Below are positions 1-57,986 of a stretch of DNA of 64,000 nt, piece by piece. A program made the translations under genes and the position numbers. Every line of letters starts with the position of its first letter. Position 1 is the stretch's first letter. Origin of the DNA: an uncultured Gammaproteobacteria bacterium (GTDB taxonomy: Bacteria; Patescibacteriota; Patescibacteriia; S139-126); the NCBI GenBank assembly GCA_964493305.1, contig CAZBLW010000001.1, positions 177,484-241,483 on the forward strand, in the 5' to 3' direction. Below the pieces are notes generated by a model. The model did no database searches, was not told the DNA's origin, and saw only the letters and a list, made by a program, of their open reading frames with translations.

Positions 1-743
1 AGCGTAAGGAAAAAAATGACAAAGAAGCTATGCGTCGGTTGATTGAGGCTAATTTGCGTTTAGTGGTTTCGATTGCTAAAAAATTTACTGGCCGTAGTTT
101 ATCTTTATTGGATTTAATTCAAGAAGGTAATATTGGTTTGTTTAGAGCGGTAGAAAAATATGATTACCGCAAAGGTTTTAAATTTTCTACCTATGCCACC
201 TGGTGGATTCGGCAGGCGATTACTAGAGCATTGGCTGATCAATCGCGGACAATCAGAATTCCAGTTCATATGGTAGAAACTATCAATAAATTTCAACAAG
301 TCGAAAGACGTTTAATTCAAGACCTGGGTAGAGAACCGTTACCTGAAGAAATCGCTTCGGAAATGGGCGAGCCGTTGGATAAGATTTTGCATATCATGAA
401 AATATCTCAAGAAACAGTTTCGTTAGAAACTTCAGTTGGTGATGATGATGATGGTGATTCTAAACTGGGCGATTTTATTGAAGATCAAAAAACTATTACT
501 CCTGATCGAGTGGCGGCTTTGCGACTATTGAAAGATCATGTTACTGAAATAATAAGTCAGTTAACCCCACGTGAACAAAAGATTTTAGAAATGCGTTTTG
601 GTTTAACTGACGGAGTTGCTCATACTTTGGAAGAAGTAGGACAAGAGTTTGGTGTAACCCGCGAACGTATTCGGCAAATCGAAGCTAAAGCTTTAGAAAA
701 GATTCAGCAGAATATGCAAATGAAAAAATTAAAGGACTATTAG
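1..743 (+). CDS. rpoD: RNA polymerase sigma-70 family factor (regions 2-4), 5'-partial at the window edge; reading frame begins at nt 3
   Basis: Translation contains [15 protein letters not shown]...[23 protein letters not shown] and a C-terminal region 4 HTH ([21 protein letters not shown]). In-frame codons continue upstream of the first Met to the window edge. Confidence 0.9.
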
Positions 744-2016: not shown

Positions 2017-2721
2017 ATGAGTATACATATTGCTGCCAAACCTGGACAAATTGCCGAAACTGTTTTATTAGCTGGTGATCCTTTGCGAGCAAAATTTATC
2101 GCTGACAATTATTTAGAAAAAGTAACTCAGTACAATACTGTTCGTAATATGTTAGGTTTTACCGGTTATACTTTAGATAATAGGAAAGTTTCAGTTCAAG
2201 GTTCGGGTATGGGCATGCCGTCACTGGCAATTTATGTCAATGAATTAATAGATAGCTACAAGGTTAAAAAAATTATCCGAGTAGGTAGTTGTGGTTCGTT
2301 ACAGCCAGAAATAAAATTGCAGGATATAATTCTAGCTATGGGTTCATGCTCTGATTCAGCATTAAATGTGCGTCGTTTTGTGGGTCTTAGTTTTGCCCCT
2401 TTGGCAGATTGGGATTTATTGTGGCGAGCTTATCAGCTGGCGCAACAAACATCTACCTTAGTTAGAGTGGGTAATATTTTTGCCACTGATAAATTTTATG
2501 ATGATTGCTCACCCAGCGCCTGGGAAATATTTGCCCAATACAAAGTATTGGCAATTGAAATGGAAACGGCGGAACTTTATACCTTGGCCGCACAAAAAAA
2601 CATACAAGCTTTATCGATTCTAACTGTCAGCGACAGTTTAGTTACCAAGCAATCAGTGAGTGCTTTAGAGCGGGAACAAAGTTTCACCGAGATGATTGAA
2701 CTAGCTTTGCAGTTATTTTAG
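2017..2721 (+). CDS. deoD: purine nucleoside phosphorylase, DeoD type
   Basis: AGDPLRAKFIADNYLE...NMLGFTGYT...SVQGSGMGMPS...KIIRVGSCGS...EMETAELY are hallmark PNP-I motifs, and the sequence aligns with E. coli DeoD. Confidence 0.9.
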   Translation: MSIHIAAKPGQIAETVLLAGDPLRAKFIADNYLEKVTQYNTVRNMLGFTGYTLDNRKVSVQGSGMGMPSLAIYVNELIDSYKVKKIIRVGSCGSLQPEIKLQDIILAMGSCSDSALNVRRFVGLSFAPLADWDLLWRAYQLAQQTSTLVRVGNIFATDKFYDDCSPSAWEIFAQYKVLAIEMETAELYTLAAQKNIQALSILTVSDSLVTKQSVSALEREQSFTEMIELALQLF

Positions 2722-2726
2722 TTAAT

Positions 2727-2756
2727 AAGCGGATAGTTATTTATCCGCTTTTTTAT
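2727..2756 (+). terminator. rho-independent terminator (aagcggata..tatccgctt + T6)
   Basis: Inverted repeat followed by TTTTTTATT, just after the deoD stop. Confidence 0.7.
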
Positions 2757-2937
2757 TGGTGGCAATAAATTTTTTGGTAATTAGAAATATTCGCATACTA
2801 CTTATAATAACCAAAATTAGTCCAATTAATTGTGCTCCGGGACTGTCATCATATTCTCCAAAAACAATCATAAATACACCAAATAGAAGTAGTGTAAGGA
2901 AAATAAATGATAATAACGCATATCTTATTTTGTTCAT
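2737..2937 (-). CDS. small two-TM membrane protein (hypothetical)
   Basis: 66 aa with two hydrophobic helices. Its 3' end overlaps the deoD terminator, so the call is tentative. Confidence 0.3.
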   Translation of the reverse strand: MNKIRYALLSFIFLTLLLFGVFMIVFGEYDDSPGAQLIGLILVIISSMRIFLITKKFIATNKKADK

Positions 2938-3054
2938 AAGTTAATTATATCATTACATATAAAAAAATGACGAGCAAAAGTTCATCATTTTTTTATGGCT
3001 TGGTGTCGTGGGGGAAATTAGAACCAGAAGTGTGGTGTAATATCAAACTAATCA

Positions 3055-3357
3055 CTATTGTCCATTAACAACCTTTTCAATATAGTCATCCAATAATGAG
3101 CTAAGATTGTTTTGAACCAATTCAGAAAATTCATCCGATGTATATTTTGATGCTAATACCTTTTCTAAACCTGTCGTATCCTTTTTTTCTAAGCACTTAT
3201 TAATATGATTCCAATCCTCATTATTAAATTTTGGTGCAGTAATACTTATTAATTCTAAACCAGCTATTGTTAAAAAATCGTTAGTGTACTTTCCAAGCTT
3301 ATCTTCACTTAATTCTATGCCTCGTGATTTTAATAATGCTCTTAATAATTCTTTCAT
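3055..3357 (-). CDS. hypothetical protein
   Basis: 100 aa, coupled by a 4-nt overlap to the upstream ORF. AT-rich region near a tRNA. Confidence 0.4.
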   Translation of the reverse strand: MKELLRALLKSRGIELSEDKLGKYTNDFLTIAGLELISITAPKFNNEDWNHINKCLEKKDTTGLEKVLASKYTSDEFSELVQNNLSSLLDDYIEKVVNGQ

Positions 3358-3689: not shown

Positions 3690-3847
3690 ATTGCCATAAA
3701 TATTAATAATTAGTCCCTCTATATAATATATATATCACAATTATAGTATTTTTCAAGTTACAATATATTACAATATAGTCTATACTCCAGTTCTAACCTT
3801 CACTTGCCCTATACAAAAAACACCAATAAATACTGGTGTTCTTTGTT

Positions 3848-3867
3848 ATGGCTCCGCGGGTCGGACT
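3848..3867. repeat. 20-bp direct repeat of the tRNA-Asn 3' end (atggctccgcgggtcggact), identical to 3942..3961
   Basis: Exact 20/20 copy of the T-stem 3' half plus acceptor stem and CCA, 94 bp from the genuine tRNA end. Two hairpin plus T-run terminators (3919..3940 and 3815..3840, minus-strand sense) lie around it. Confidence 0.7.
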
Positions 3868-3983
3868 TCCCGCCAAGGCGGGATAAACTTCTCGTCCTCC
3901 CAGAAATGAAAATAGCGCCACCTGATGGTGACGCAATTTTCATGGCTCCGCGGGTCGGACTCGAACCGACGACCCACTGGTTA

Positions 3984-4532
3984 CATCTACCCCTATGTTT
4001 CCATAAGGAATGGACTATCTCATCATCCTGATTTAATTCAGGAGCGGGGCGCTTCCCCCTAATAAAGAGGTACGCCTTTCGGCTAGTCTCTGAACCTTCT
4101 CGCCAAATTAGCGAGCTTGGCTGCGGATTACCTTATCTGTAATTTTCAGACTTAGGCTTCCCGTCAATTCACCCCGTTTTTCTGTCCTCGCTTACGCGAG
4201 GCAGCTGCGTAATACCGACATGTAATTCTCTGTGACAATTAGCACAAATCAAAATGCATTTGTCGACTTCTTTTTTTACACTTTCCCATGACCTTGTCAA
4301 ACCTTGTCCGGATATACCAAATTTCTTTTTGGTTTTATCTAGATGGTGTAAATCGAGAGCTTCAATACATTTTTTATAACCACAAATTATACATTTACCG
4401 CCTTTATATTCAACAACCATTGCTTTAATCTGTTTTCTTCTTTTAGCAACAGCTCGTTTTAAATATTGGGCACGATCGGTATATTTTCTTTTATCTGGCA
4501 TACATTTAAAAGTATACCAAATGATGTTGAAC
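3984..4532 (-). mobile_element. group I self-splicing intron in the tRNA-Asn anticodon loop (between nt 35 and 36), carrying an HNH endonuclease ORF in its P1 loop
   Basis: The 5' exon end GGCUGU can pair with the internal guide GCAGCC (revcomp of 4119..4124), including a terminal U.G wobble at the splice site. The R-like element UUCAGAGACUAGCC (revcomp of 4081..4094) and S-like GAGAUAGUCC (revcomp of 4012..4021) form a GACUA/UAGUC P7. The intron ends in G directly before exon 2. Confidence 0.7.
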
Positions 4533-4534
4533 AC
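4169..4534 (-). CDS. HNH homing endonuclease (intron-encoded)
   Basis: CIICGYKKC...LDLHHLD...NCHRELH is an HNH/zinc-finger endonuclease motif. The ORF starts (GTG or nearby) immediately at the 5' splice site. The track's GTG at 4532..4534 includes the last two exon-1 nucleotides (4533..4534), so this CDS extends 2 nt past the intron annotation (3984..4532); the true start is uncertain. Confidence 0.75.
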   Translation of the reverse strand: MFNIIWYTFKCMPDKRKYTDRAQYLKRAVAKRRKQIKAMVVEYKGGKCIICGYKKCIEALDLHHLDKTKKKFGISGQGLTRSWESVKKEVDKCILICANCHRELHVGITQLPRVSEDRKTG

Positions 4535-4562
4535 AGCCAGTTGCTCTACCGACTGAGCTACC

Positions 4563-4703
4563 GCGGAATAATATTAAACTCATTAAAGAACAAATAACCG
4601 CGAGGCAATTTCACGATAGAGCAACTGACTGACACAGTCGTCAGCTTAGACATCCAGTCCAACCTGACCTCTACCGACAAAAAACCTTACGGAATAATAT
4701 TAA
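4563..4703. repeat. segment flanked by 15-bp direct repeats (cggaataatattaaa at 4563..4577 and 4689..4703), containing diverged pseudo-copies of tRNA-Asn exon 1 in both orientations
   Basis: Plus strand has CCGCGAGGCAATTTCACGATAGAGCAACTGACTG against true exon 1 CCGCGGTAGCTCAGTCGGTAGAGCAACTGGCTG. Minus strand has GTCGGTAGAGGTCAGG. A central hairpin ctgac..gtcag is also present. Confidence 0.5.
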
Positions 4704-49964: not shown

Positions 49965-52900
49965 ATGCAATTATTTTCTTTTCCGCTAAGTAATGTTTCG
50001 GAAAAGCGTTCTACTTTTCCTGTTTTAGGTACTCATTTTTTAAAGACAGCTCTACGCAATTTATTGGCAACAATAATTTTAGGAGCTGTTTTTTTTGTGC
50101 CTTCGCTGGTGCAAGCCCAAACGCCTGATTTTGGTTTGGGTTACGGTTCGGCGATTGGTTTGGGTACTCAGGATATCAGAGAAACCGTGGCCCGAATTAT
50201 TAAAATAGTTTTAGGTGTTTTGGGAATAATTGTTACTTTGATTATTATTTATGCCGGGTATGTATGGATGACCGCAGCGGGCAATGAACAACGGGTGAGT
50301 ATGGCCAAAAAGATTCTTATCAATGGTGTAATTGGTTTACTAATTATCATTTTGGCTTATGCCCTGACCGTCTGGATTTTTAGAGTAATTATTGGTGGTA
50401 CTACTGGCGGGGGCGGGGGTAGTTGTATTGATGGGCAAACCAGTGGTTGTACCCGTTGTGTGGGCGGAGCTTGGATTTATGATGGTACTTTACCTGGTTG
50501 TACTTTGCCGGGAGCTGATTTTAGAGTAAAAGACATTACTACCACGCGTGAGGGAGTAAGTCCAGCCCAAAATGTATATTTGTGTTCTCGAGTTCAATCA
50601 ACTTTCAGTAATCGTTTACAAGCAGAGTCCGTGGCAGCAGCTTTGACAGCCAATCAATTAAGAATCGATACTTTTGCGGGTGATTGGCAAACTACCAGTA
50701 ATGTTTTGACTTTTAAACATGATGATAATATATTTACCGCCAACACCGCTTACCGATTGTTACTGCCGCGACAAGGCAACACTACTCCACTGCAAGATCA
50801 AAGCGGATTAACTCTTACTCAGTGTGATCCGATTGTCGGTTGTGCTAGTACCTTGGAACATTTTACTTGGGATTTTACTACCGGTGAAGAAAACGATATT
50901 GTTGCCCCGACTATTACCACAACTTATCCGATTTCTGATGTAACCAGTCCAACTTATCCTGATCGCAATGTTACTCGTTCGCCGATCTTAGAAGCTTATT
51001 TTTCCGAAAGTATAGATGCCACTTCCGTAGCTGATGCCAATGGCCATCCTTTGGCTGGAGTTATTACTTTAGAAAGATTATCTACTCAAGGCGGTAGTGT
51101 TGATTTGACCATACCCAATGACCAGTTGGAGGTTTATTTTGTTGACAATGGTTTTCGTTTCAATTTGATTGATCCAAATTTATTGGATAGTTTCCGGTGG
51201 TACCGAATTACCATTCAAGGAGTAGAGGATTTGTGTGGTAATCAAATGGAAGCTCCCAAGGTGTGGGAATTTCAAACCAATGACTCAGCACCGGGGGTAA
51301 GAAGTTGGTATCCAACTGGTACCAATCAATGTACTGATGTTGATGTGATTGTTGGTTTCAATAGTTCAATGTTTGATCAACAAGTAACCTTGGTAATTAC
51401 TGGAAGCGATGGCAGTGTGTATAGCGCTACTATTAGACCATCTTTACTGGAACCAGGACCTTATCAGGTAGCTGGTAGTGGTGGAACTTTGTCAGTGGCT
51501 GATCCCGGATTGCCTTATAGCAATAATTTTAAATCTTTTGTTTTTAGGTCAACTAATGGCTGGCGAACCAATACAACTTACTCAATCGCTATTACTACTG
51601 ATTTAGTAATCAATACCAATGGCGACACACTGTCACATAACTGGACTTTTAGTACTTCTGACCCAGCTAGTTGTGCTTGCGCTCCTTATATTATGTCAGT
51701 AAATCCCAATCAGGGAATGGCCGGACAATGTGTCACTGTTCAGGGGCGTTGTTTTACTGGTACTACTGCCAACCCAGCTGATCTAACAGCTGTTACTATC
51801 AATGGCCAAACTGTTACCGTTGGCGGGTCTGATAGTAATTATTTTACCACCACCATACCTGATAATTTGCCAGTAGGTACCCAAGCACCAATTGTTGCTA
51901 CGATTACTTATCAAAATCCTACTTTTGGTAGTATCACCAGTAACAACAATGTAAATTACTATGTAAATCAACCCGGAGTTTATAATGGTCCCTGTTTATG
52001 GTCAGTAGTACCTTCTTTAGGATGTGTTGATACAACTGTCACTTTAGCTGGTGTCAGATTTGGAGCTGATCCAGGAAGTTATGAAACTGACCAAAACAAT
52101 GTCACCTTCAATTTAAACAGGCGTGCTCGACAAGCAGATTTTAGTTTGTGGTCAGATAGTTCGATTCGTACCCGAGTACCACAAGCAGCAGTGGATGGTA
52201 ATGTTTATGTGACCGCCAATGGACTGGCAACCAATGGCATTCCTTTTGATATTTCTTGCGGATCAGGGGGGGCTTGTTCGTCAGATCCCAATAGTTGTAT
52301 CCCAAATTCAGCCAGTTGTGCTATTGGTTATGAATGTAATACCAGTTGTATTTGCCAAGCAGTTGGTGGTGGTTTGGGTGATCCTTGTAGTTCTGACCCC
52401 AATAGTTGTGTACCAAGTGATAGTTGTATTCCATCATTGGTTTGTGATCCGACAGATTGTATATGTGTTGATGATGGTACTGGCAGCGGTAGCAGTTTTA
52501 GAGTTTCTACTGCATGGCCAACTTGTGATGGAGCTTGTATCAACTCCGAAGTGGGCTTAAGATTTTCTACCAGTGTAAATCCCACTACCGTCACTAATTC
52601 CAATATAGCCGTGTTTGATTATCGGGACAGCGGTTTCACGCAACTGGTTGGTGAAGAACAAATTACTGTATTTTTAAATACAATCACCAATGAAATTTAT
52701 ATTTATCCTGATGGTAATTTGACTGGTGGTCATTATATCAGAGTAGTAGTGCGCGATGAGCTTTTGGGTAGTTTAGGTCAGACAATCGAGAATTTAAATT
52801 TTGATGAGGATGGCAATGGTACCAACGATAGTTATGCCTGGACCTTTAGTACCAACAACACTACTTGTAGTTTAACTGGTGTGGAAACAAGCCCCGCTCA

Positions 52901-55900
52901 AATGTCATTTTTGAATATCAATCAAAGTCAGACCATTTATGGCAGGGCAATTTCAGCACAACAATGTGGTACTAACCAATATGTCAATCCTTGGGTTTAT
53001 GATTGGAAGTGGGAAGATACTGACCGCGAAACTATTGCTCGGGTGAGTAACAATGACACCAATGATGATCGTCGGTTTGATCCCAATCAAACCGTGACCT
53101 CGGTTGCTACTGGCGAAACCCAAATTATTGGTGCGGTTGATGCTTTGTCGGATTTGACTGATGTAACAGTTGGTAATAGTGGAATTGGGGTGAGTTGTGA
53201 CAATGATCCCAATACGCCACAGTGTGAACTAAACAACGATGTTTGTCGTAATTTTGGTTTGGTTTGCGATCCCAATGCCAATTGTACTTGTCAGGATGCT
53301 GGTAATACCCAACTTACTCCTGGTATTGTCAGTGTTATCCCTTTTAACAATCAAACCAATGTTTGTCGCAACAGTATTGTCCAAGTTACTTTTAACCAAA
53401 GAATGGACACTGGTTCAATTGTTTGGCAAAGCACTTTTAATTTAAACGATGATGATCGTGATGATGTCAGAGGCGGTTTAAGTTTTCTAACTGTCAATAA
53501 CGGTGTTTATGGTTGTAATAACTCTCAAGGGTGTACGGTAGCAAGATTTTATCCTTCCCGACCTTATTTTGCCAATACTTTACATACTATTACTTTAACT
53601 ACCGGAATAAAAAATTTAGCTGGGGTGTCACTACCTGCTAACTTTGTTTCTAGATTTACCAGTGGTAGTCAAATTTGTCGAGTAGAGACAGTTGATTTGC
53701 AACCCAATTATTATCTATTTACCACTCTCAATGAAAGTGTGGTTTATTTGGCAACGCCCAGAGATATACGTGGCGGTCTAATAGCACCTATCCCTGGTTT
53801 TTATGACTGGTCTTGGCAGTGGCAGAAAGTTGATGATGACAATGTAGTCACTATGGAAGATATTGGTAGTCCGGATAGGAGAAATTTAGTAGCACAACCG
53901 CGTAACGGAGTGGCTAGGATTACTGCTACGGCACAAATTACCACCGCTGACAGCTCGATTGGTGATACAGTCGGTAGGCAAATTAGCGATAGTAGTGAGG
54001 CTGAAGTATTTATTTGTATGTATCCCTGGCCAGAGACGCCACCAATGCAGGATTCACAGTATGGTTTTCAAATGAAATATTGTCGGGGTAATGATTCAGC
54101 TAATTTGCTCGGTATGTTGTCCGATCCTGGTAGTTCTATTATTTCTTTAACTACTTCTGACCCGGATTTAGAAAGAGAGTATTTGTTTAATTATCTCGGA
54201 TCTTCTTTACCACCAGGTTATGAAGGTACTGACCCGTTTATTATTAGTAAAATAAAACAATCTAAGATTGGTAGATGGTTGATAGATACTTGGCAAAATT
54301 TATTGACTCTGTTTAATCGTCCTTCAGCCCTAGCACAAGTTTCGCAAGATGTGATTGGGTTGCGTATCTATGACAATCCCAATCGCCTAGGCCCCAGGGC
54401 ATGGTATGAACAAAAATCTTTTCCCAAAGGCAATCCGCAAGATATTACTGTCGATGGTTTTCCAGCAATCAAAGATGGTACCTCAGTTTATATCTTAGGT
54501 CCAAGACGTGCTGGTTCGATAGAAACTTATATTTATGTTTTGTCTTACAATGATCTTTCCAGTCAGACCAATATTCAGATTTTTAACCAATTGTTAAGTA
54601 ATTTCCGTTTTTATACTTTGTCAGCTCAAGAAAAACCACAAGTAGCCAGAGATTTGAAAAGACTAGCTGATGCCAGTTTTATCGCTACCCAAGTCGAGCG
54701 CTATCAAGATCAAACTGGCAGTTATCCAGCTCTAACTGCTGGCAGTTATATTGCTGGTATGTCGACTAGTAAGTGGCCTTCTTGGCAAGCCACACTTGCT
54801 AATCAGTTGGGAGTAAGTATACCCAATGATCCCATCAATAAATTTGCCAGTTATTGCTCCAATAACCCCACTCAAAACTGTTGGCAAAATAGTGATTGTG
54901 GTAGTGGACAGTGTTTATCAGGTTGTGCGGAAGGAGCAAACCCAGATACTTGTTGGAACGAAGTAACTCAACAATATTCTTGTCCGGCTGGTTCAGCTGT
55001 TTATCAATACCGTCGTTACGGAGTCAATGATTTTAGAATCGGAGTTTTGTTGGAAGTAAACGATTATGAAGCTTTACCTGCTTATTTAGATGTAAACGGA
55101 GCATATTGCAATGGTACGATTTATACTGGTGATGGTTTTTGTGGTGATGGTATAGTGCAAGCAGCTCTGGGCGAACAGTGTGAAGAAGGTCAACAAAGGT
55201 TAGCATGTGATCCCACTTGGCCAAATTATTATGATCCAGTTTATCAACAATGTGAATCAGATTGCCAATGGCCTGATGCACAAGTTTTTGCTTGTGGTGG
55301 TTATTGTGGTGATGGATTATTACAATCAGCTCAAGAAGCTTGTGATGGTACGGCTGGACTAGGAGGTGTCGGACCAGCTACTTGTTATACTGACTGTAGT
55401 GGTTTTTATTGTAATCCGGGTTATGTGTTAGTGGGTGGTGTTTGTCAGCTTGATTGGTGCAATCCAGCTACTCAGGACTGCTCTAGTCAAATACCCAATG
55501 GCAGTGGTTTGTATCAATCCTGTAATTTTGTGAGTGGCAATTGGCAGTGGTCAGATTGTCAGGTTACTAGCTGTAATCCTGGTTATGTGATCAGTGGCAA
55601 CTCCTGCGTTTTACCTCAACCCACCGTAACTATCAGTAGTCCGGCCAACAACTCCAATGGTGGCAGTAGTGTCACCATGACTTTTACTATCAACCAAGGC
55701 GGAGTGTACAATGTTTTGCGCGATGGCACAGTGGTTTATACAACCGGAGATAATGCCGGAACTTACACCTATAGTTTTACTGGTCTGACAGCAGGACCGC
55801 ACGTGTTGGGGGTATCAATTACCAATGCCAACGGTACCGGGAACGCACAAATAAATTACACAGTGAACCCACCACCACTACCCACCGTAACTATCAGCAG

Positions 55901-57986
55901 TCCGGCCAACAACTCCAATGGTGGCAGTAGTGTGACTATGACTTTTACTATCAACCAAGGCGGAGTGTATAATGTCTTGCGCGATGGCGTGATTGTTTAT
56001 ACAACCGGAGACAATGCCGGAACTTACACCTATAGTTTTACCGGACTTAGTTCTGGTCCGCACGTTTTAGGAGTATCAATTACCAATGCCAACGGTACCG
56101 GGAATGCGCAAATCAACTACACGGTTAATCCACCACCATTACCAATAGTTACTATTACCAATCCTGCCAATGGCAGTACTGGTACGAGTACAGTATTTTT
56201 GACTTTCAATATTAGTCAAAACGGAGTTTATACCATTTTACGTGACGGCAGTATTGTCTATACTAGTGGCAATGTAACAGCTGGTTCTCATACTTATGTT
56301 TTAGGAGGATTGTTGCCCGGACCCCATGTCTTGGGTGTATCAATTACCAATGCCAACGGTACCGGGAACGCGCAAGTTGTTTACAATGTAAATCCGCCAC
56401 CACCGGCTCCGCCCACAGTGACCATCAATAGTCCTGCTAACGGTACGACTGGGGGAGCTAGTGTAACTATGAATTTTACTATTAGTCAAAACGGCACTTA
56501 CGTAATATTGCGCAACGGAATTGGAATCGCTACCAGTACAGTTGCAGCTGGAACTTACAATTATACTTACAACAATCTAACCAATGGCAATTATATTTTG
56601 GGAGTATCAATTACCAATGCCAACGGTACGGGTCAGGCACAAATCAACTATACCGCCAATACCCCACCACCCACAGTGACTATCAATAGTCCCACCAATG
56701 GTGGCACGGGCAATACCAGTAGCGTCACTATGCAATATACGGTGAGCGCTGCAGTTTCTGCTTCATTTTTTGTTGACGGCACTAATGTTGGTGGCACCAG
56801 TCATGGTAGCAGTGGTACTTACAGTTTTACTTTTACTGGTCTGACCAACGGCACTCATACCTTACAGGTCAATGTCAATAATCCTTATGGCAATGCTAGT
56901 GCACAAATAACTTACAATATCAGTGTGCCTCCGGTGGTTACTATTTTGAGTCCAGCCAACAATAGTAGTGGCGGTAGCACTGTGGTGATGCAGTTTAATT
57001 TAAGCCAAGGCGGTACTTACAATATTTTGTTGGATGGCACTACGGTATTCACCAATGTTTCTACAGCTGGTACGCAAAATTATACCTTTAACAATTTAAC
57101 TACTGGCGGTCATGTGTTGGGAGTAAATATTAGTAATGTTTATGGTAGTGATAGTGACCAAATAAATTATACTAAGTTGGCAGAAATTCCTGCAGCCCCA
57201 ACTGGATTGACTGCAGTTGCCAGTGGCAATAATATAACTTTAAATTGGACTGACAATGCCAACAACGAAACCAATTTTGTAATTGATCGAGCCATTGGTA
57301 GCCCCACTTCTTGGATGATTGAATATGCTACGGTGGGGGCCAATATCACCACTTTCCAAGATACTGGTTTGTCAGATAATACTTATTATTATCGAGTTAG
57401 AGCAGAAAATGCTGATGGCTTTAGTGCCTATTCCAATACCGCCAGTGCTTTAGTTTTAACACAGGCTACTATTTTTATTTCCAGTGCTACCAGACAGGGT
57501 AATATAGGAGCAGGTTATATAGAAAATGTTGATCAATTTTGTCAAAATTTAGCCGATGCTTCTGCTTTAGTTAGAGCTGGACAATGGCGAGCGTGGATAT
57601 CGGGCTGGTCAACTATTGGCGCTTTTCTTAATCCCAGAGATCATTTAACCAGTTATCAACCAACGCCTTTGTACGGACGAAGTGGTACAGGTTTATATTT
57701 TGTTGCCAATCAAATATCAAGTTTGTGGCTAACAGGAATTCAACATGCCATATTAAATGATGAGTCAGGTGTAACAAGGCCTGATAATGTTTGGACGGCT
57801 ACTTATGGTGACGGTTCTGGTTCTGGTATTAATTGCAATAATTGGCAAATTAATTCCTGGACTTATGGTGGAGCGGTTGGTATTAATGATTATTTTCCAG
57901 TTGTTGGTGATTCAAGATGGACTGATGATCATCAAATTGGTTGCGATTTCAATGCTCGTGTTTATTGTATTTGGTATAGACCATAA
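49965..57986 (+). CDS. giant (2673-aa) cell-surface protein: N-terminal two-helix pilin-like membrane module, Ig-like/beta-sandwich region, Cys-rich EGF-like modules, six tandem ~87-aa repeats, an FN3 domain, and a Cys-containing C-terminal domain
   Basis: N-terminus: hydrophobic helix, then charged loop AAGNEQRVSMAKK, then a second helix. Repeated CSSDPNSC.P...C modules at about 2250-2500 nt. Six repeats PTVTISSPANNSNGGSSVTMTFTI.QGGVYN.LRDG..VYT.G.NAGT.TYSF.GL..GPHVLGVSITNANGTGNAQINYTVNPPP (aa ~1885-2400). FN3: PTGLTAVASGNNITLNWTD...YYYRVRAENADGFSAYS. Confidence 0.7.
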   Translation: MQLFSFPLSNVSEKRSTFPVLGTHFLKTALRNLLATIILGAVFFVPSLVQAQTPDFGLGYGSAIGLGTQDIRETVARIIKIVLGVLGIIVTLIIIYAGYVWMTAAGNEQRVSMAKKILINGVIGLLIIILAYALTVWIFRVIIGGTTGGGGGSCIDGQTSGCTRCVGGAWIYDGTLPGCTLPGADFRVKDITTTREGVSPAQNVYLCSRVQSTFSNRLQAESVAAALTANQLRIDTFAGDWQTTSNVLTFKHDDNIFTANTAYRLLLPRQGNTTPLQDQSGLTLTQCDPIVGCASTLEHFTWDFTTGEENDIVAPTITTTYPISDVTSPTYPDRNVTRSPILEAYFSESIDATSVADANGHPLAGVITLERLSTQGGSVDLTIPNDQLEVYFVDNGFRFNLIDPNLLDSFRWYRITIQGVEDLCGNQMEAPKVWEFQTNDSAPGVRSWYPTGTNQCTDVDVIVGFNSSMFDQQVTLVITGSDGSVYSATIRPSLLEPGPYQVAGSGGTLSVADPGLPYSNNFKSFVFRSTNGWRTNTTYSIAITTDLVINTNGDTLSHNWTFSTSDPASCACAPYIMSVNPNQGMAGQCVTVQGRCFTGTTANPADLTAVTINGQTVTVGGSDSNYFTTTIPDNLPVGTQAPIVATITYQNPTFGSITSNNNVNYYVNQPGVYNGPCLWSVVPSLGCVDTTVTLAGVRFGADPGSYETDQNNVTFNLNRRARQADFSLWSDSSIRTRVPQAAVDGNVYVTANGLATNGIPFDISCGSGGACSSDPNSCIPNSASCAIGYECNTSCICQAVGGGLGDPCSSDPNSCVPSDSCIPSLVCDPTDCICVDDGTGSGSSFRVSTAWPTCDGACINSEVGLRFSTSVNPTTVTNSNIAVFDYRDSGFTQLVGEEQITVFLNTITNEIYIYPDGNLTGGHYIRVVVRDELLGSLGQTIENLNFDEDGNGTNDSYAWTFSTNNTTCSLTGVETSPAQMSFLNINQSQTIYGRAISAQQCGTNQYVNPWVYDWKWEDTDRETIARVSNNDTNDDRRFDPNQTVTSVATGETQIIGAVDALSDLTDVTVGNSGIGVSCDNDPNTPQCELNNDVCRNFGLVCDPNANCTCQDAGNTQLTPGIVSVIPFNNQTNVCRNSIVQVTFNQRMDTGSIVWQSTFNLNDDDRDDVRGGLSFLTVNNGVYGCNNSQGCTVARFYPSRPYFANTLHTITLTTGIKNLAGVSLPANFVSRFTSGSQICRVETVDLQPNYYLFTTLNESVVYLATPRDIRGGLIAPIPGFYDWSWQWQKVDDDNVVTMEDIGSPDRRNLVAQPRNGVARITATAQITTADSSIGDTVGRQISDSSEAEVFICMYPWPETPPMQDSQYGFQMKYCRGNDSANLLGMLSDPGSSIISLTTSDPDLEREYLFNYLGSSLPPGYEGTDPFIISKIKQSKIGRWLIDTWQNLLTLFNRPSALAQVSQDVIGLRIYDNPNRLGPRAWYEQKSFPKGNPQDITVDGFPAIKDGTSVYILGPRRAGSIETYIYVLSYNDLSSQTNIQIFNQLLSNFRFYTLSAQEKPQVARDLKRLADASFIATQVERYQDQTGSYPALTAGSYIAGMSTSKWPSWQATLANQLGVSIPNDPINKFASYCSNNPTQNCWQNSDCGSGQCLSGCAEGANPDTCWNEVTQQYSCPAGSAVYQYRRYGVNDFRIGVLLEVNDYEALPAYLDVNGAYCNGTIYTGDGFCGDGIVQAALGEQCEEGQQRLACDPTWPNYYDPVYQQCESDCQWPDAQVFACGGYCGDGLLQSAQEACDGTAGLGGVGPATCYTDCSGFYCNPGYVLVGGVCQLDWCNPATQDCSSQIPNGSGLYQSCNFVSGNWQWSDCQVTSCNPGYVISGNSCVLPQPTVTISSPANNSNGGSSVTMTFTINQGGVYNVLRDGTVVYTTGDNAGTYTYSFTGLTAGPHVLGVSITNANGTGNAQINYTVNPPPLPTVTISSPANNSNGGSSVTMTFTINQGGVYNVLRDGVIVYTTGDNAGTYTYSFTGLSSGPHVLGVSITNANGTGNAQINYTVNPPPLPIVTITNPANGSTGTSTVFLTFNISQNGVYTILRDGSIVYTSGNVTAGSHTYVLGGLLPGPHVLGVSITNANGTGNAQVVYNVNPPPPAPPTVTINSPANGTTGGASVTMNFTISQNGTYVILRNGIGIATSTVAAGTYNYTYNNLTNGNYILGVSITNANGTGQAQINYTANTPPPTVTINSPTNGGTGNTSSVTMQYTVSAAVSASFFVDGTNVGGTSHGSSGTYSFTFTGLTNGTHTLQVNVNNPYGNASAQITYNISVPPVVTILSPANNSSGGSTVVMQFNLSQGGTYNILLDGTTVFTNVSTAGTQNYTFNNLTTGGHVLGVNISNVYGSDSDQINYTKLAEIPAAPTGLTAVASGNNITLNWTDNANNETNFVIDRAIGSPTSWMIEYATVGANITTFQDTGLSDNTYYYRVRAENADGFSAYSNTASALVLTQATIFISSATRQGNIGAGYIENVDQFCQNLADASALVRAGQWRAWISGWSTIGAFLNPRDHLTSYQPTPLYGRSGTGLYFVANQISSLWLTGIQHAILNDESGVTRPDNVWTATYGDGSGSGINCNNWQINSWTYGGAVGINDYFPVVGDSRWTDDHQIGCDFNARVYCIWYRP
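55620..57180 (+). repeat. six in-frame tandem repeats of about 258-270 nt inside the giant gene; copies 1 and 2 are about 90% identical at nucleotide level
   Basis: Units start at about 55620, 55881, 56142, 56412, 56669 and 56929. The string gtatcaattaccaatgccaacggtaccggg is conserved across copies 1-4. Confidence 0.85.

Follow-up and report, generated by a model that had tools for sequence, protein, structure and literature searches.

A tRNA-Asn(GUU) gene of a Patescibacteria bacterium, split by a very probably self-splicing group I intron that carries an HNH endonuclease gene in its P1 loop

The split tRNA-Asn gene and its surroundings

The stretch of DNA analyzed here (64 kb; "the window") comes from a Patescibacteria (CPR) bacterium, and the closest named relatives of its TopA belong to Buchanan-, Falkow- and Magasanikbacteria and to the Patescibacteria group. 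On the minus strand, a tRNA-Asn gene lies in two halves that flank a group I intron (Table 1). When the exons (35 nt and 41 nt) were joined, ARAGORN recognized a 76-nt tRNA-Asn(gtt), and when introns were allowed on the unspliced DNA, it again reported tRNA-Asn(gtt) and placed an intron of 549 nt at position 36. An earlier sequence-only reading had joined the same halves (4567..4533 and 3983..3943) into a canonical 76-nt tRNA-Asn, and the intron-aware detection agrees with it. The features it listed, U1-A72, G73 and the anticodon loop CUGUUAA, are all present in the spliced tRNA, as is an encoded CCA. It had also called this tRNA near-collinear with E. coli tRNA-Asn; the two are identical at 56 of 76 positions, with no gaps.

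Default ARAGORN and the Rfam tRNA model found no other tRNA-Asn within the 64-kb window, as that reading had held, and these searches overlooked the split gene itself. Since the sole tRNA-Asn gene of the window is split, decoding of Asn codons would here depend on splicing. Because standard tRNA finders miss such a gene, the genome seems to have no tRNA-Asn, which distorts completeness estimates.

The locus is flanked by ghost fragments of the tRNA. Its 3' end is duplicated 94 nt downstream of the genuine one, and on the other side the degenerate copy of exon 1 forms an inverted repeat with it (4534-4551 and 4614-4631, 89% complementary). These fragments imply a past rearrangement. They are not general in the intron family, in which anything similar was found only at two loci (L024 and L073). 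In public assemblies, many contigs terminate near the split tRNA-Asn locus.

Table 1. Features of the split tRNA-Asn locus in window coordinates
Feature	Coordinates	Strand	Basis or detail
Direct copy (25 nt) of the tRNA-Asn 3' end, covering the T-arm 3' strand, acceptor strand and GCCA	3843..3867	-	
Terminator-like hairpin directly 3' of the tRNA	3915..3934	-	
tRNA-Asn exon 2, positions 36-76 (UAAC...GCCA, CCA encoded)	3943..3983	-	ARAGORN
Subgroup IA-type group I intron of 549 nt at tRNA position 35/36	3984..4532	-	RF00028; ARAGORN intron call
Ribozyme core	3990..4176	-	Covariation, 60 homologous introns
P9	4009-3990	-	
P8	4043-4026	-	
P7 (GACUA/UAGUC)	4088-4084/4017-4013	-	
P7.1	4083-4074	-	
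P7.2	4070-4056	-	
P6-P6a	4121-4094	-	
P5-P5a	4156-4131	-	
P4	4166-4160/4127-4122	-	
P3	4176-4170/4051-4045	-	
P2 hairpin, CCUCGC-GUAA-GCGAGG, GNRA loop	4186..4201	-	96% of cells paired; compensatory changes in 5 of 6 pairs
Internal guide region	4202..4212	-	UUA 4212..4210, C 4209, GCAGCUG 4208..4202
HNH endonuclease ORF, 110 aa from the conserved ATG at 4501, in the P1 loop	4169..4501	-	Stop UGA 4171..4169
Conserved hairpin GGUAUAC/GUAUGCC pairing the HNH start codon	4493..4522	-	65 HNH copies
TGGTATACT, 5' strand of the start-codon hairpin; resembles an extended -10 box, 9 nt upstream of the ATG	4519..4511	-	
P1 5' strand, exon U29-U35 plus intron G1 and U2; 5' splice site after U35 (4533)	4531..4539	-	Pairs with 4210..4202
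tRNA-Asn(GUU) exon 1, positions 1-35, ending ...CUGU	4533..4567	-	ARAGORN, spliced and unspliced; sequence
Degenerate inverted copy of exon 1; similarity ends at the intron insertion site	4597..4631	+	

Fold of the intron and recognition of the anticodon loop

The 549-nt insert had been said to carry group I hallmarks. This was upheld by a search with RF00028, which matched 4223..3991 on the minus strand at 88.6 bits (gathering score, 50) and covered model positions 1-253 of 253; with an E value of 2.8e-21, the match is far beyond chance. In an alignment of 60 homologous introns, 85.3% of the cells in the P2-P9 fold were paired, compared to 66.7% in shuffles (0 of 500 as high) and at most 53.3% with slid partners, and 48 of the 62 fold pairs had compensatory changes. 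P7, which is formed by the two strands proposed earlier, is invariant among the 60 homologues. P7.1 (95.5% paired) and P7.2 (80.8% paired) both have compensatory changes. They lie between the 5' strand of P7 and the 3' strand of P3, where they are the extra hairpins of subgroup IA, and the IA assignment rests on these two hairpins. P8 is just about 50% paired in the alignment, probably owing to misalignment of a hairpin of variable length. The final intron nucleotide is G, as claimed. This terminal (omega) G lies at 3984, and a G precedes the 3' splice site in 60 of 60 aligned homologues. The proposed P1-P9 fold is thus backed by covariation from P2 to P9, and in P1 the extension pair covaries.

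For P1, the earlier pairing of the exon 1 end, with a U.G wobble at the splice site (U35.G9), held, while the guide it had named, GCAGCC, did not: within the intron this string occurs solely at 4124..4119, at the P4'/P6 junction. The true guide is GCAGCUG, the 3' strand of P1, which pairs with U29-U35 and sits just past the HNH motif. Its GCAGC is invariant (60/60 homologues). The next base, C 4209, pairs with intron G1; this P1 extension, between intron position +1 and guide position -1, is paired in 72 of 77 introns (58 G-C, 10 A-U, 2 C-G and 2 U.G or G.U). P10, between UUA and U36-A38, is weak at no more than 3 bp, and 2 or 3 of its 3 possible pairs can form in 69 of the 77. A guide near the 5' splice site, which would place the ORF in P2, was rejected since no nearby sequence pairs with CUGU.

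The register of the intron bears on the identity of the host gene: if the intron lay two bases further upstream (33/34), the host would be tRNA-Thr(UGU). In 44 of 81 loci (80 related loci and L001), the ARAGORN call was Thr(tgt), with the intron placed at 33 or 34, and the Asn/Thr ambiguity is documented in the published work on these introns, in which ARAGORN and tFind often report Thr (PMC13011429). However, a shifted Thr intron would end in A in the window (...GUAGA, followed by UGUAACC), and the terminal G would be lost, which rules this reading out here. ARAGORN itself reports Asn for the window, 76 of the 80 related loci yield tRNA-Asn(GUU) when spliced at 35/36, with U-1 and a terminal G in place, and intron-less relatives are tRNA-Asn, with 74 of 76 positions identical to the spliced window tRNA (L147). 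In a homologue, the 35/36 site was confirmed by sequencing of in vitro products (PMC13011429). We give a tRNA-Thr host almost no credence.

A second concern is whether the intron has decayed and lost its ability to splice, leaving this copy a tRNA pseudogene with a functional tRNA-Asn elsewhere. Our tRNA-Asn search covered 64 kb of a genome of roughly 558 kb, and the rearranged flanks would fit such a history. Nevertheless, all core helices are intact in the window, every nucleotide that is invariant in the family is present, the Rfam score is high over the full model, and the exons form a perfect cloverleaf. We therefore consider decay very improbable.

Taken together, we are highly confident that a self-splicing group I intron of subgroup IA splits this tRNA-Asn(GUU) gene at 35/36 and carries an HNH gene in its P1 loop. 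From the fold and from a homologue that splices in vitro (see below), we infer that the window intron is catalytic. In the predicted reaction, the guide 5'-UUA-C-GCAGCUG-3' would read the anticodon loop: GCAG would pair with C32-U35 as P1, in which the U35.G wobble would mark the 5' splice site, and UUA could pair with U36-A38 as P10. An external guanosine would attack after U35. G 3984 would then fill the P7 site, and the exons would join to restore the CUGUUAA loop.

The HNH gene and its start-codon hairpin

The HNH cassette expands the P1 loop by about 315 nt. A 121-aa HNH ORF had been described that filled the space between the 5' splice site and the guide. Its place in the P1 loop stands, but its length and its end do not. 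The 121-aa version is a longer mechanical reading from GTG 4534 to the same end at 4169, and the conserved ORF has 110 aa. It does not stop before the guide but runs through the guide and P2 and stops within P3, so that its last 15 or so codons overlap the ribozyme. The conserved Gln-Leu-Pro (CAG-CUG-CC) is explained by this double use of the ORF 3' end as guide, P2 and P3; the C-terminus of the protein is constrained by RNA and not by protein.

The HNH motif, called clear from the letters of this stretch, proved to be conserved. In 22 family sequences with 61 to 84% identity, the pattern is CxxC...HH...CxNCH...H, and C37, C40, H52, H53, C86, N88, C89, H90 and H94 are invariant. Invariance of the zinc-binding and catalytic residues over such diverse members implies purifying selection on a nuclease. 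In profile searches of PDB sequences, the family matched the HNH domains of two entries, 6me0 (a group II intron maturase, E 3.6e-4) and 6ghc (McrA, E 0.005). Pfam HNH (PF01844) matched 8 of the 22 close family members at E ≤ 0.01 (best, 2.2e-6), and the window protein itself scored below the gathering threshold (14.1 versus 21.4 bits, E 0.052). An insert of about 27 residues between the HH and the N lowers this score. NCBIfam gave no match to the window protein. Its AlphaFold2 model (pLDDT 81.9) has strands at residues 49-53 and 82-86 followed by a helix at 87-95. A Foldseek search of this model against the PDB returned no individually significant match (best E, 0.09), and its top matches were almost entirely HNH nucleases, among them Cas9 HNH, Cap5, T4 endonuclease VII, Gme HNH and IscB.

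The start codon of the HNH gene lies within a conserved hairpin. AUG is paired in 61 of 65 HNH copies, with a mean z of -2.8 and compensatory variants. The 5' strand of this hairpin is the TGGTATACT box, and a motif of this type occurs 9 to 11 nt upstream of the ATG in 48 of 60 loci. A consensus promoter scan at the locus did not call the element because there is no -35 box, and as a result its action as a promoter is something that we infer from its sequence. The hairpin would keep the start codon paired in the precursor RNA. Together with the extended -10 appearance of its 5' strand, this suggests that translation of the ORF probably occurs only on nearly leaderless transcripts started internally. 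Such translation would keep ribosomes off the folding ribozyme.

Judging by other HNH enzymes that are encoded in introns, the most likely function of the HNH protein is homing. The enzyme would attack intron-less tRNA-Asn genes close to the insertion site with a cut or a nick, and repair would copy the intron in. It is also conceivable that the ORF is inactive or retained for another role, e.g., in intron folding, and that the intron is passed on purely vertically. The subthreshold HNH scores of the window protein and the RNA constraint on its C-terminus would fit this. We regard it as unlikely given the invariant zinc-binding and catalytic residues and the distribution of the gene, which is described below.

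Spread of the HNH gene and comparison with known systems

In a scan of draft genomes, the HNH gene was found in at least 538 species from many Patescibacteria classes. Within a 35/36 tRNA-Asn intron, it is present in 71 of 80 related loci. It is also found as a free-standing gene upstream of tRNA-Asn in some genomes: beside an intron-less tRNA-Asn in one locus (L031), beside an ORF-less intron in five (L011, L021, L035, L045 and L048), and together with an intronic copy in another (L066). In the ORF-less homologues of L045 and L048, the exon end CUGU is followed by GU-loop-ACGCAG, with a 5-nt P1 loop where the window carries the ORF. Twenty related contigs keep the synteny of a sigma-factor gene followed by tRNA-Asn, and there the tRNA is intron-less and the HNH gene is missing. 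Such patchy, modular spread, with free-standing copies and syntenic absences, is the pattern expected of a mobile nuclease gene.

Tentatively, and with the odds somewhat against us, we propose that the HNH gene is a mobile cassette, complete in itself, whose movement does not depend on the ribozyme, and that these loci show different moments in a cycle of nuclease invasion. The cassette would be made up of the promoter-like TGGTATACT box, the hairpin that hides the start codon, and the ORF. The stages would be a free-standing gene by an intron-less tRNA-Asn (L031), a free-standing gene by an ORF-less intron, both copies together (L066), and fusion into the P1 loop. At the fusion stage, which would comprise the window and 70 other loci, the last codons would double as guide, P2 and P3. 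The hairpin could serve as the switch: no HNH protein would be made from the pre-tRNA, and leaderless transcripts started internally would be its only source. Neither the cassette-like mobility nor the hairpin switch is described in the available parts of the published work (PMC13011429).

The intron class, the 35/36 site, the HNH variants and the self-splicing activity were already published in 2025-2026, and the window case is ordinary for its phylum. Nakagawa, Amikura, Omae, and Suzuki (mSystems 2026, PMC13011429; preprint of July 2025, 10.1101/2025.07.03.662931) describe group I introns at 35/36 of Patescibacteria tRNA-Asn(GUU), four of them with HNH genes. As cited there, Williams (2020, bioRxiv 10.1101/2020.01.27.920355) was the first to list this site class, under the name Asn.4Ug. 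In vitro, the ORF-less tRNA-Asn intron of GCA_016700035.1 spliced itself out with precision at 35/36, and its exons were no longer ligated once the terminal G had been replaced by C (PMC13011429). The window core is 74.5% identical to this intron over 216 aligned nt. The arrangement had been called unusual in the sequence-only reading. To the contrary, the 35/36 tRNA-Asn intron is the commonest tRNA-intron type in Patescibacteria and has been published with in vitro validation (PMC13011429).

The published introns share the host gene, site, phylum and IA-type core with P7.1 and P7.2 with the window. In the four long ones (Table S3 of PMC13011429), the HNH gene lies in the same place, the TGGTATAC...ATGCCAGA start is shared, and the same ...ACGCAGC guide follows the ORF. 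The window genome is outside the 95 complete genomes of that study, and the window exon 1 is absent from its Table S3. The parts of the paper that are available do not mention the P1-loop position, the overlap of ORF and ribozyme, the start-codon hairpin or the free-standing copies. The study found just 4 HNH-bearing cases, compared to at least 538 species in our draft-genome scan. Our observations on this spread, on the hairpin with its promoter-like box, on the ORF-ribozyme overlap and on the free-standing copies are increments to a known story. The locus could be a compact natural system for the invasion of self-splicing introns by a nuclease gene, and it could also show how nuclease expression is kept from disturbing ribozyme folding.

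Subgroup IC accounts for 81% of all bacterial tRNA introns, and genes for homing endonucleases are present in some group I introns of bacterial tRNAs (PMC13011429). The classical examples are in tRNA-Leu(UAA) at 34/35, in tRNA-fMet(CAU) at 33/34 with the PD-(D/E)xK enzyme I-Ssp6803I, and in tRNA-Arg(CCU) and tRNA-Ile(CAU) at 36/37 (Azoarcus). Like the window intron, they are self-splicing and interrupt the anticodon loop, and their guide pairs with anticodon-loop nucleotides. However, they are mostly IC introns at other positions with other nuclease families, whereas the window has an IA intron at 35/36 with an HNH gene.

Introns of subgroup IA with a nuclease ORF in a peripheral loop are found in phages, namely the T4 td intron (I-TevI) and the DNA polymerase introns of SPO1 and SP82 (the HNH enzymes I-HmuI and I-HmuII). 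The SPO1 and SP82 enzymes nick one strand. No sequence similarity between I-TevI, I-HmuI or I-HmuII and the window HNH enzyme was detected. The phage introns interrupt protein-coding genes and carry their ORFs in other loops, whereas the window intron lies in a cellular tRNA gene with its ORF in P1, and unlike the phage ORFs, the window ORF has a 3' end in common with the guide, P2 and P3. In T4, the ORF has its own promoter, and a hairpin blocks translation from the precursor RNA; this is the same expression logic that we propose for the hairpin at 4522..4493.

The split tRNA-Asn gene and its ribozyme

With default settings ARAGORN missed the split tRNA-Asn, as did the Rfam tRNA model; the only tRNAs that they returned from the 64-kb window were Leu, two Met, and Val. 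ARAGORN identified the 76 nt of the joined exons as tRNA-Asn(gtt); they form a perfect cloverleaf that has U1-A72 and G73, and CCA is encoded. With introns allowed, it called the same tRNA on the unspliced DNA and placed a 549-nt intron at position 36. The proposal of the sequence-only reading that the two halves splice in silico to tRNA-Asn(GUU) was thus borne out on spliced and unspliced sequence. That reading had suggested running the Rfam group I model, which matched 4223..3991 (minus) over its full length with 88.6 bits (E 2.8e-21; gathering score 50). These data confirm a group I intron in tRNA-Asn(GUU), far beyond chance, and the earlier interpretation was correct in substance. We rejected tRNA-Thr(UGU) split at 33/34, a frequent call in related loci when ARAGORN was used alone, as a known two-base boundary artefact.

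Eighty related loci were fetched through the intron ORF, and 60 introns were aligned with MAFFT over the segment that starts at the guide and ends at the 3' splice site. A P2-P9 model was drawn explicitly for the window intron, and its pairs were then counted over the alignment. Standard pairs filled 85.3% of cells compared to 66.7% in column shuffles, with 0 of 500 shuffles as high, and at most 53.3% of cells paired when partners were slid by 1 to 3 columns. Compensatory changes were seen in 48 of 62 pairs, and helices P2, P3, P4, P5, P6, P6a, P7.1, P7.2, and P9 were supported. The P7 pairing that had been proposed held throughout. P8 reached only about 50% pairing, most likely owing to misalignment by MAFFT of this hairpin, which varies in length. 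P7.1 and P7.2, which covary and separate P7 from the 3' strand of P3, place the intron in subgroup IA.

The guide had originally been placed at GCAGCC, but the sole occurrence of this hexamer (4124..4119) is in the conserved junction of P4' and P6. The true guide, GCAGCUG (4208..4202), pairs with U29-U35 and forms the U35.G wobble at the splice site; its GCAGC is invariant (60/60 introns). Intron nucleotide 1 covaries with the nucleotide immediately preceding GCAG (among 77 introns: G-C, 58; A-U, 10; other standard pairs, 4; unpaired, 5). A weak P10 can form between UUA (4212..4210) and U36-A38, and two or three of the three possible pairs exist in 69/77 introns. Taken together, these pairings imply that the guide reads the whole invariant anticodon loop, independent of the anticodon stem.

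Features of the window and of related loci (L numbers)
Feature	Locus	Position	Strand	Remark
tRNA-Asn exon 1	window	4567..4533	minus	TCCGCGGTAGCTCAGTCGGTAGAGCAACTGGCTGT; read from window 3800..4700
tRNA-Asn exon 2	window	3983..3943	minus	TAACCAGTGGGTCGTCGGTTCGAGTCCGACCCGCGGAGCCA; read from window 3800..4700
Start-codon hairpin	window	4522..4493	minus	GGUAUAC/GUAUGCC; pairs HNH start codon; also upstream of HNH gene in L002-L081
P2	window	4201..4186	minus	GUAA loop; supported in alignment
P7	window	GACUA 4088..4084 with UAGUC 4017..4013	minus	invariant in alignment
Free-standing HNH gene	L011, L021, L035, L045, L048	about 2501-3150		directly upstream of tRNA-Asn with ORF-less intron (192-244 nt)
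Free-standing HNH gene	L031	2501-2969		upstream of intron-less tRNA-Asn
One free-standing and one intronic HNH copy	L066	1275-2254
sigma-70 gene, then intron-less tRNA-Asn	L139, L147, L154, L174, L183, L189, L191, among others
Contigs ending at or just past tRNA/intron	L003-L007, L012, L014, L018, L033, L046, L064, L072, L077, among others
Duplicate of tRNA-Asn 3' end	window	3843-3867	minus	25 nt
Inverted exon 1 copy	window	4597-4631	plus	degenerate
sigma-70 gene	window	30-743	plus
tRNA-Asn gene	window	3943-4567	minus	inverted
LOOT RNA (RF03000)	L035	3336-3459	plus	71.9 bits, Rfam
Very large ORF	window	49965-57986	plus	2,673 aa

The HNH gene and its proposed expression

The ORF-less intron of L048 starts CUGU/GUUAGUUACGCAGC (slash, splice site), forming a P1 with a 5-nt loop, while the window's P1 loop is about 315 nt. 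This comparison places the ORF in the P1 loop, as had been claimed. The 121-aa ORF described earlier stands as a mechanical ORF from GTG 4534; however, the conserved start, Met-Pro-(Asp/Glu)-Lys-Arg among 1,166 relatives, is at ATG 4501 and gives 110 aa. Nor is the ORF confined between the 5' splice site and the guide, because its UGA stop (4171..4169) falls within the 5' strand of P3, so that its last ~15 codons double as the guide, P2, and half of P3. A conserved Gln-Leu-Pro (CAG-CUG-CC) is the guide itself, and it is relaxed, i.e., not conserved, in free-standing copies of the gene.

The window protein scored 14.1 bits against Pfam HNH, under threshold, and had no match in NCBIfam; PF01844 was matched by 8 of 22 family members. 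The family alignment has invariant C37, C40, H52, H53, C86, N88, C89, H90, and H94, and the family profile matched 6me0, the HNH domain of a group II intron maturase (E 3.6e-4), and 6ghc, McrA (E 0.005). With an AlphaFold2 model (pLDDT 81.9), Foldseek returned almost solely HNH nucleases, none with a significant E-value. The invariant residues and profile matches uphold the HNH motif claim, and we accept the product as a predicted HNH nuclease whose HH and N motifs are separated by a long insert, with activity and target likewise predicted.

The start-codon hairpin pairs the AUG in 61/65 gene copies (mean z-score, -2.8). Copies with a different second codon show compensatory changes. The 5' strand of the hairpin, TGGTATACT, resembles an extended -10 box and is located 9 to 11 nt before the ATG in 48/60 loci. 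This arrangement suggests that the pre-tRNA would not yield HNH protein, which would instead be translated from nearly leaderless transcripts started internally at a putative promoter. The T4 td intron ORF follows an analogous expression logic.

Spread of the intron and history of the locus

The closest named relatives of the window TopA are Patescibacteria proteins, and at least 538 species-representative genomes, almost all of them Patescibacteria, carry the HNH family. Of the 80 fetched loci, 76 splice CUGU/...G/UAA into tRNA-Asn(GUU) and 71 carry the HNH gene inside the intron. Several loci have it free-standing with the same start-codon hairpin; for the five with an ORF-less intron, Rfam reports group I introns in four. 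A metagenome scan using the intron-less junction with the anticodon arm of the window lineage found at least 120 intron-less loci. In 20 of these, the tRNA-Asn lies just downstream of, and in the same orientation as, an orthologue of the window sigma-70 gene (62-86% amino acid identity), and none of the 20 has the HNH gene. The tRNA of one, L147, is identical to the spliced window tRNA at 74/76 positions. These syntenic relatives imply that some related lineages carry the intron and others lack it, as expected of a mobile or frequently lost element.

In the window, by contrast with this conserved synteny, the tRNA gene has the opposite orientation and is 3.2 kb away from the sigma-70 gene, with several small unannotated ORFs between them; this locus has been rearranged. 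The duplicate of the tRNA 3' end is direct (92%), 94 nt downstream of the real end, and sits between two terminator-like hairpins; it resembles a scar left by local duplication or by an integrated element. The exon 1 copy, located about 30 nt upstream of the tRNA gene proper, makes up with exon 1 an inverted repeat of 18 nt (89%), with similarity ending at the intron insertion site, and may be a trace of past breakage and repair at the presumed target of the nuclease. Such fragments are rare elsewhere (only L024 and L073).

Many public contigs run out about 250-600 nt past the HNH gene. Metagenome assemblies may break at tRNA-Asn owing to the conserved intron or to a mixture of populations with and without it. 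The LOOT RNA lies about 250 nt downstream of its tRNA-Asn, and the very large window ORF is found in a small-genome organism.

Comparison with published tRNA-Asn introns

The arrangement had been called unusual, a claim that did not hold: this exact class was reported by Nakagawa et al. (mSystems 2026; preprint July 2025; PMC13011429). They classified Patescibacteria tRNA-Asn introns as IA, showed precise self-splicing in vitro that was lost on mutation of the terminal G to C, and found HNH (PF01844) nucleases encoded by four of them. According to that paper, Williams (2020) had listed the site earlier as Asn.4Ug. The window sequence, absent from their Table S3, thus adds a further member to a known class. 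The split tRNA-Asn is real, already known, and ordinary for the phylum, and by itself adds little. The start-codon hairpin, free-standing HNH genes, tRNA fragments, and inverted tRNA gene go beyond the consulted portions of the published papers and are of modest value. The HNH-bearing examples in Table S3 share the layout of the window, and the ORF-less intron spliced in that study is 74.5% identical to the window core.
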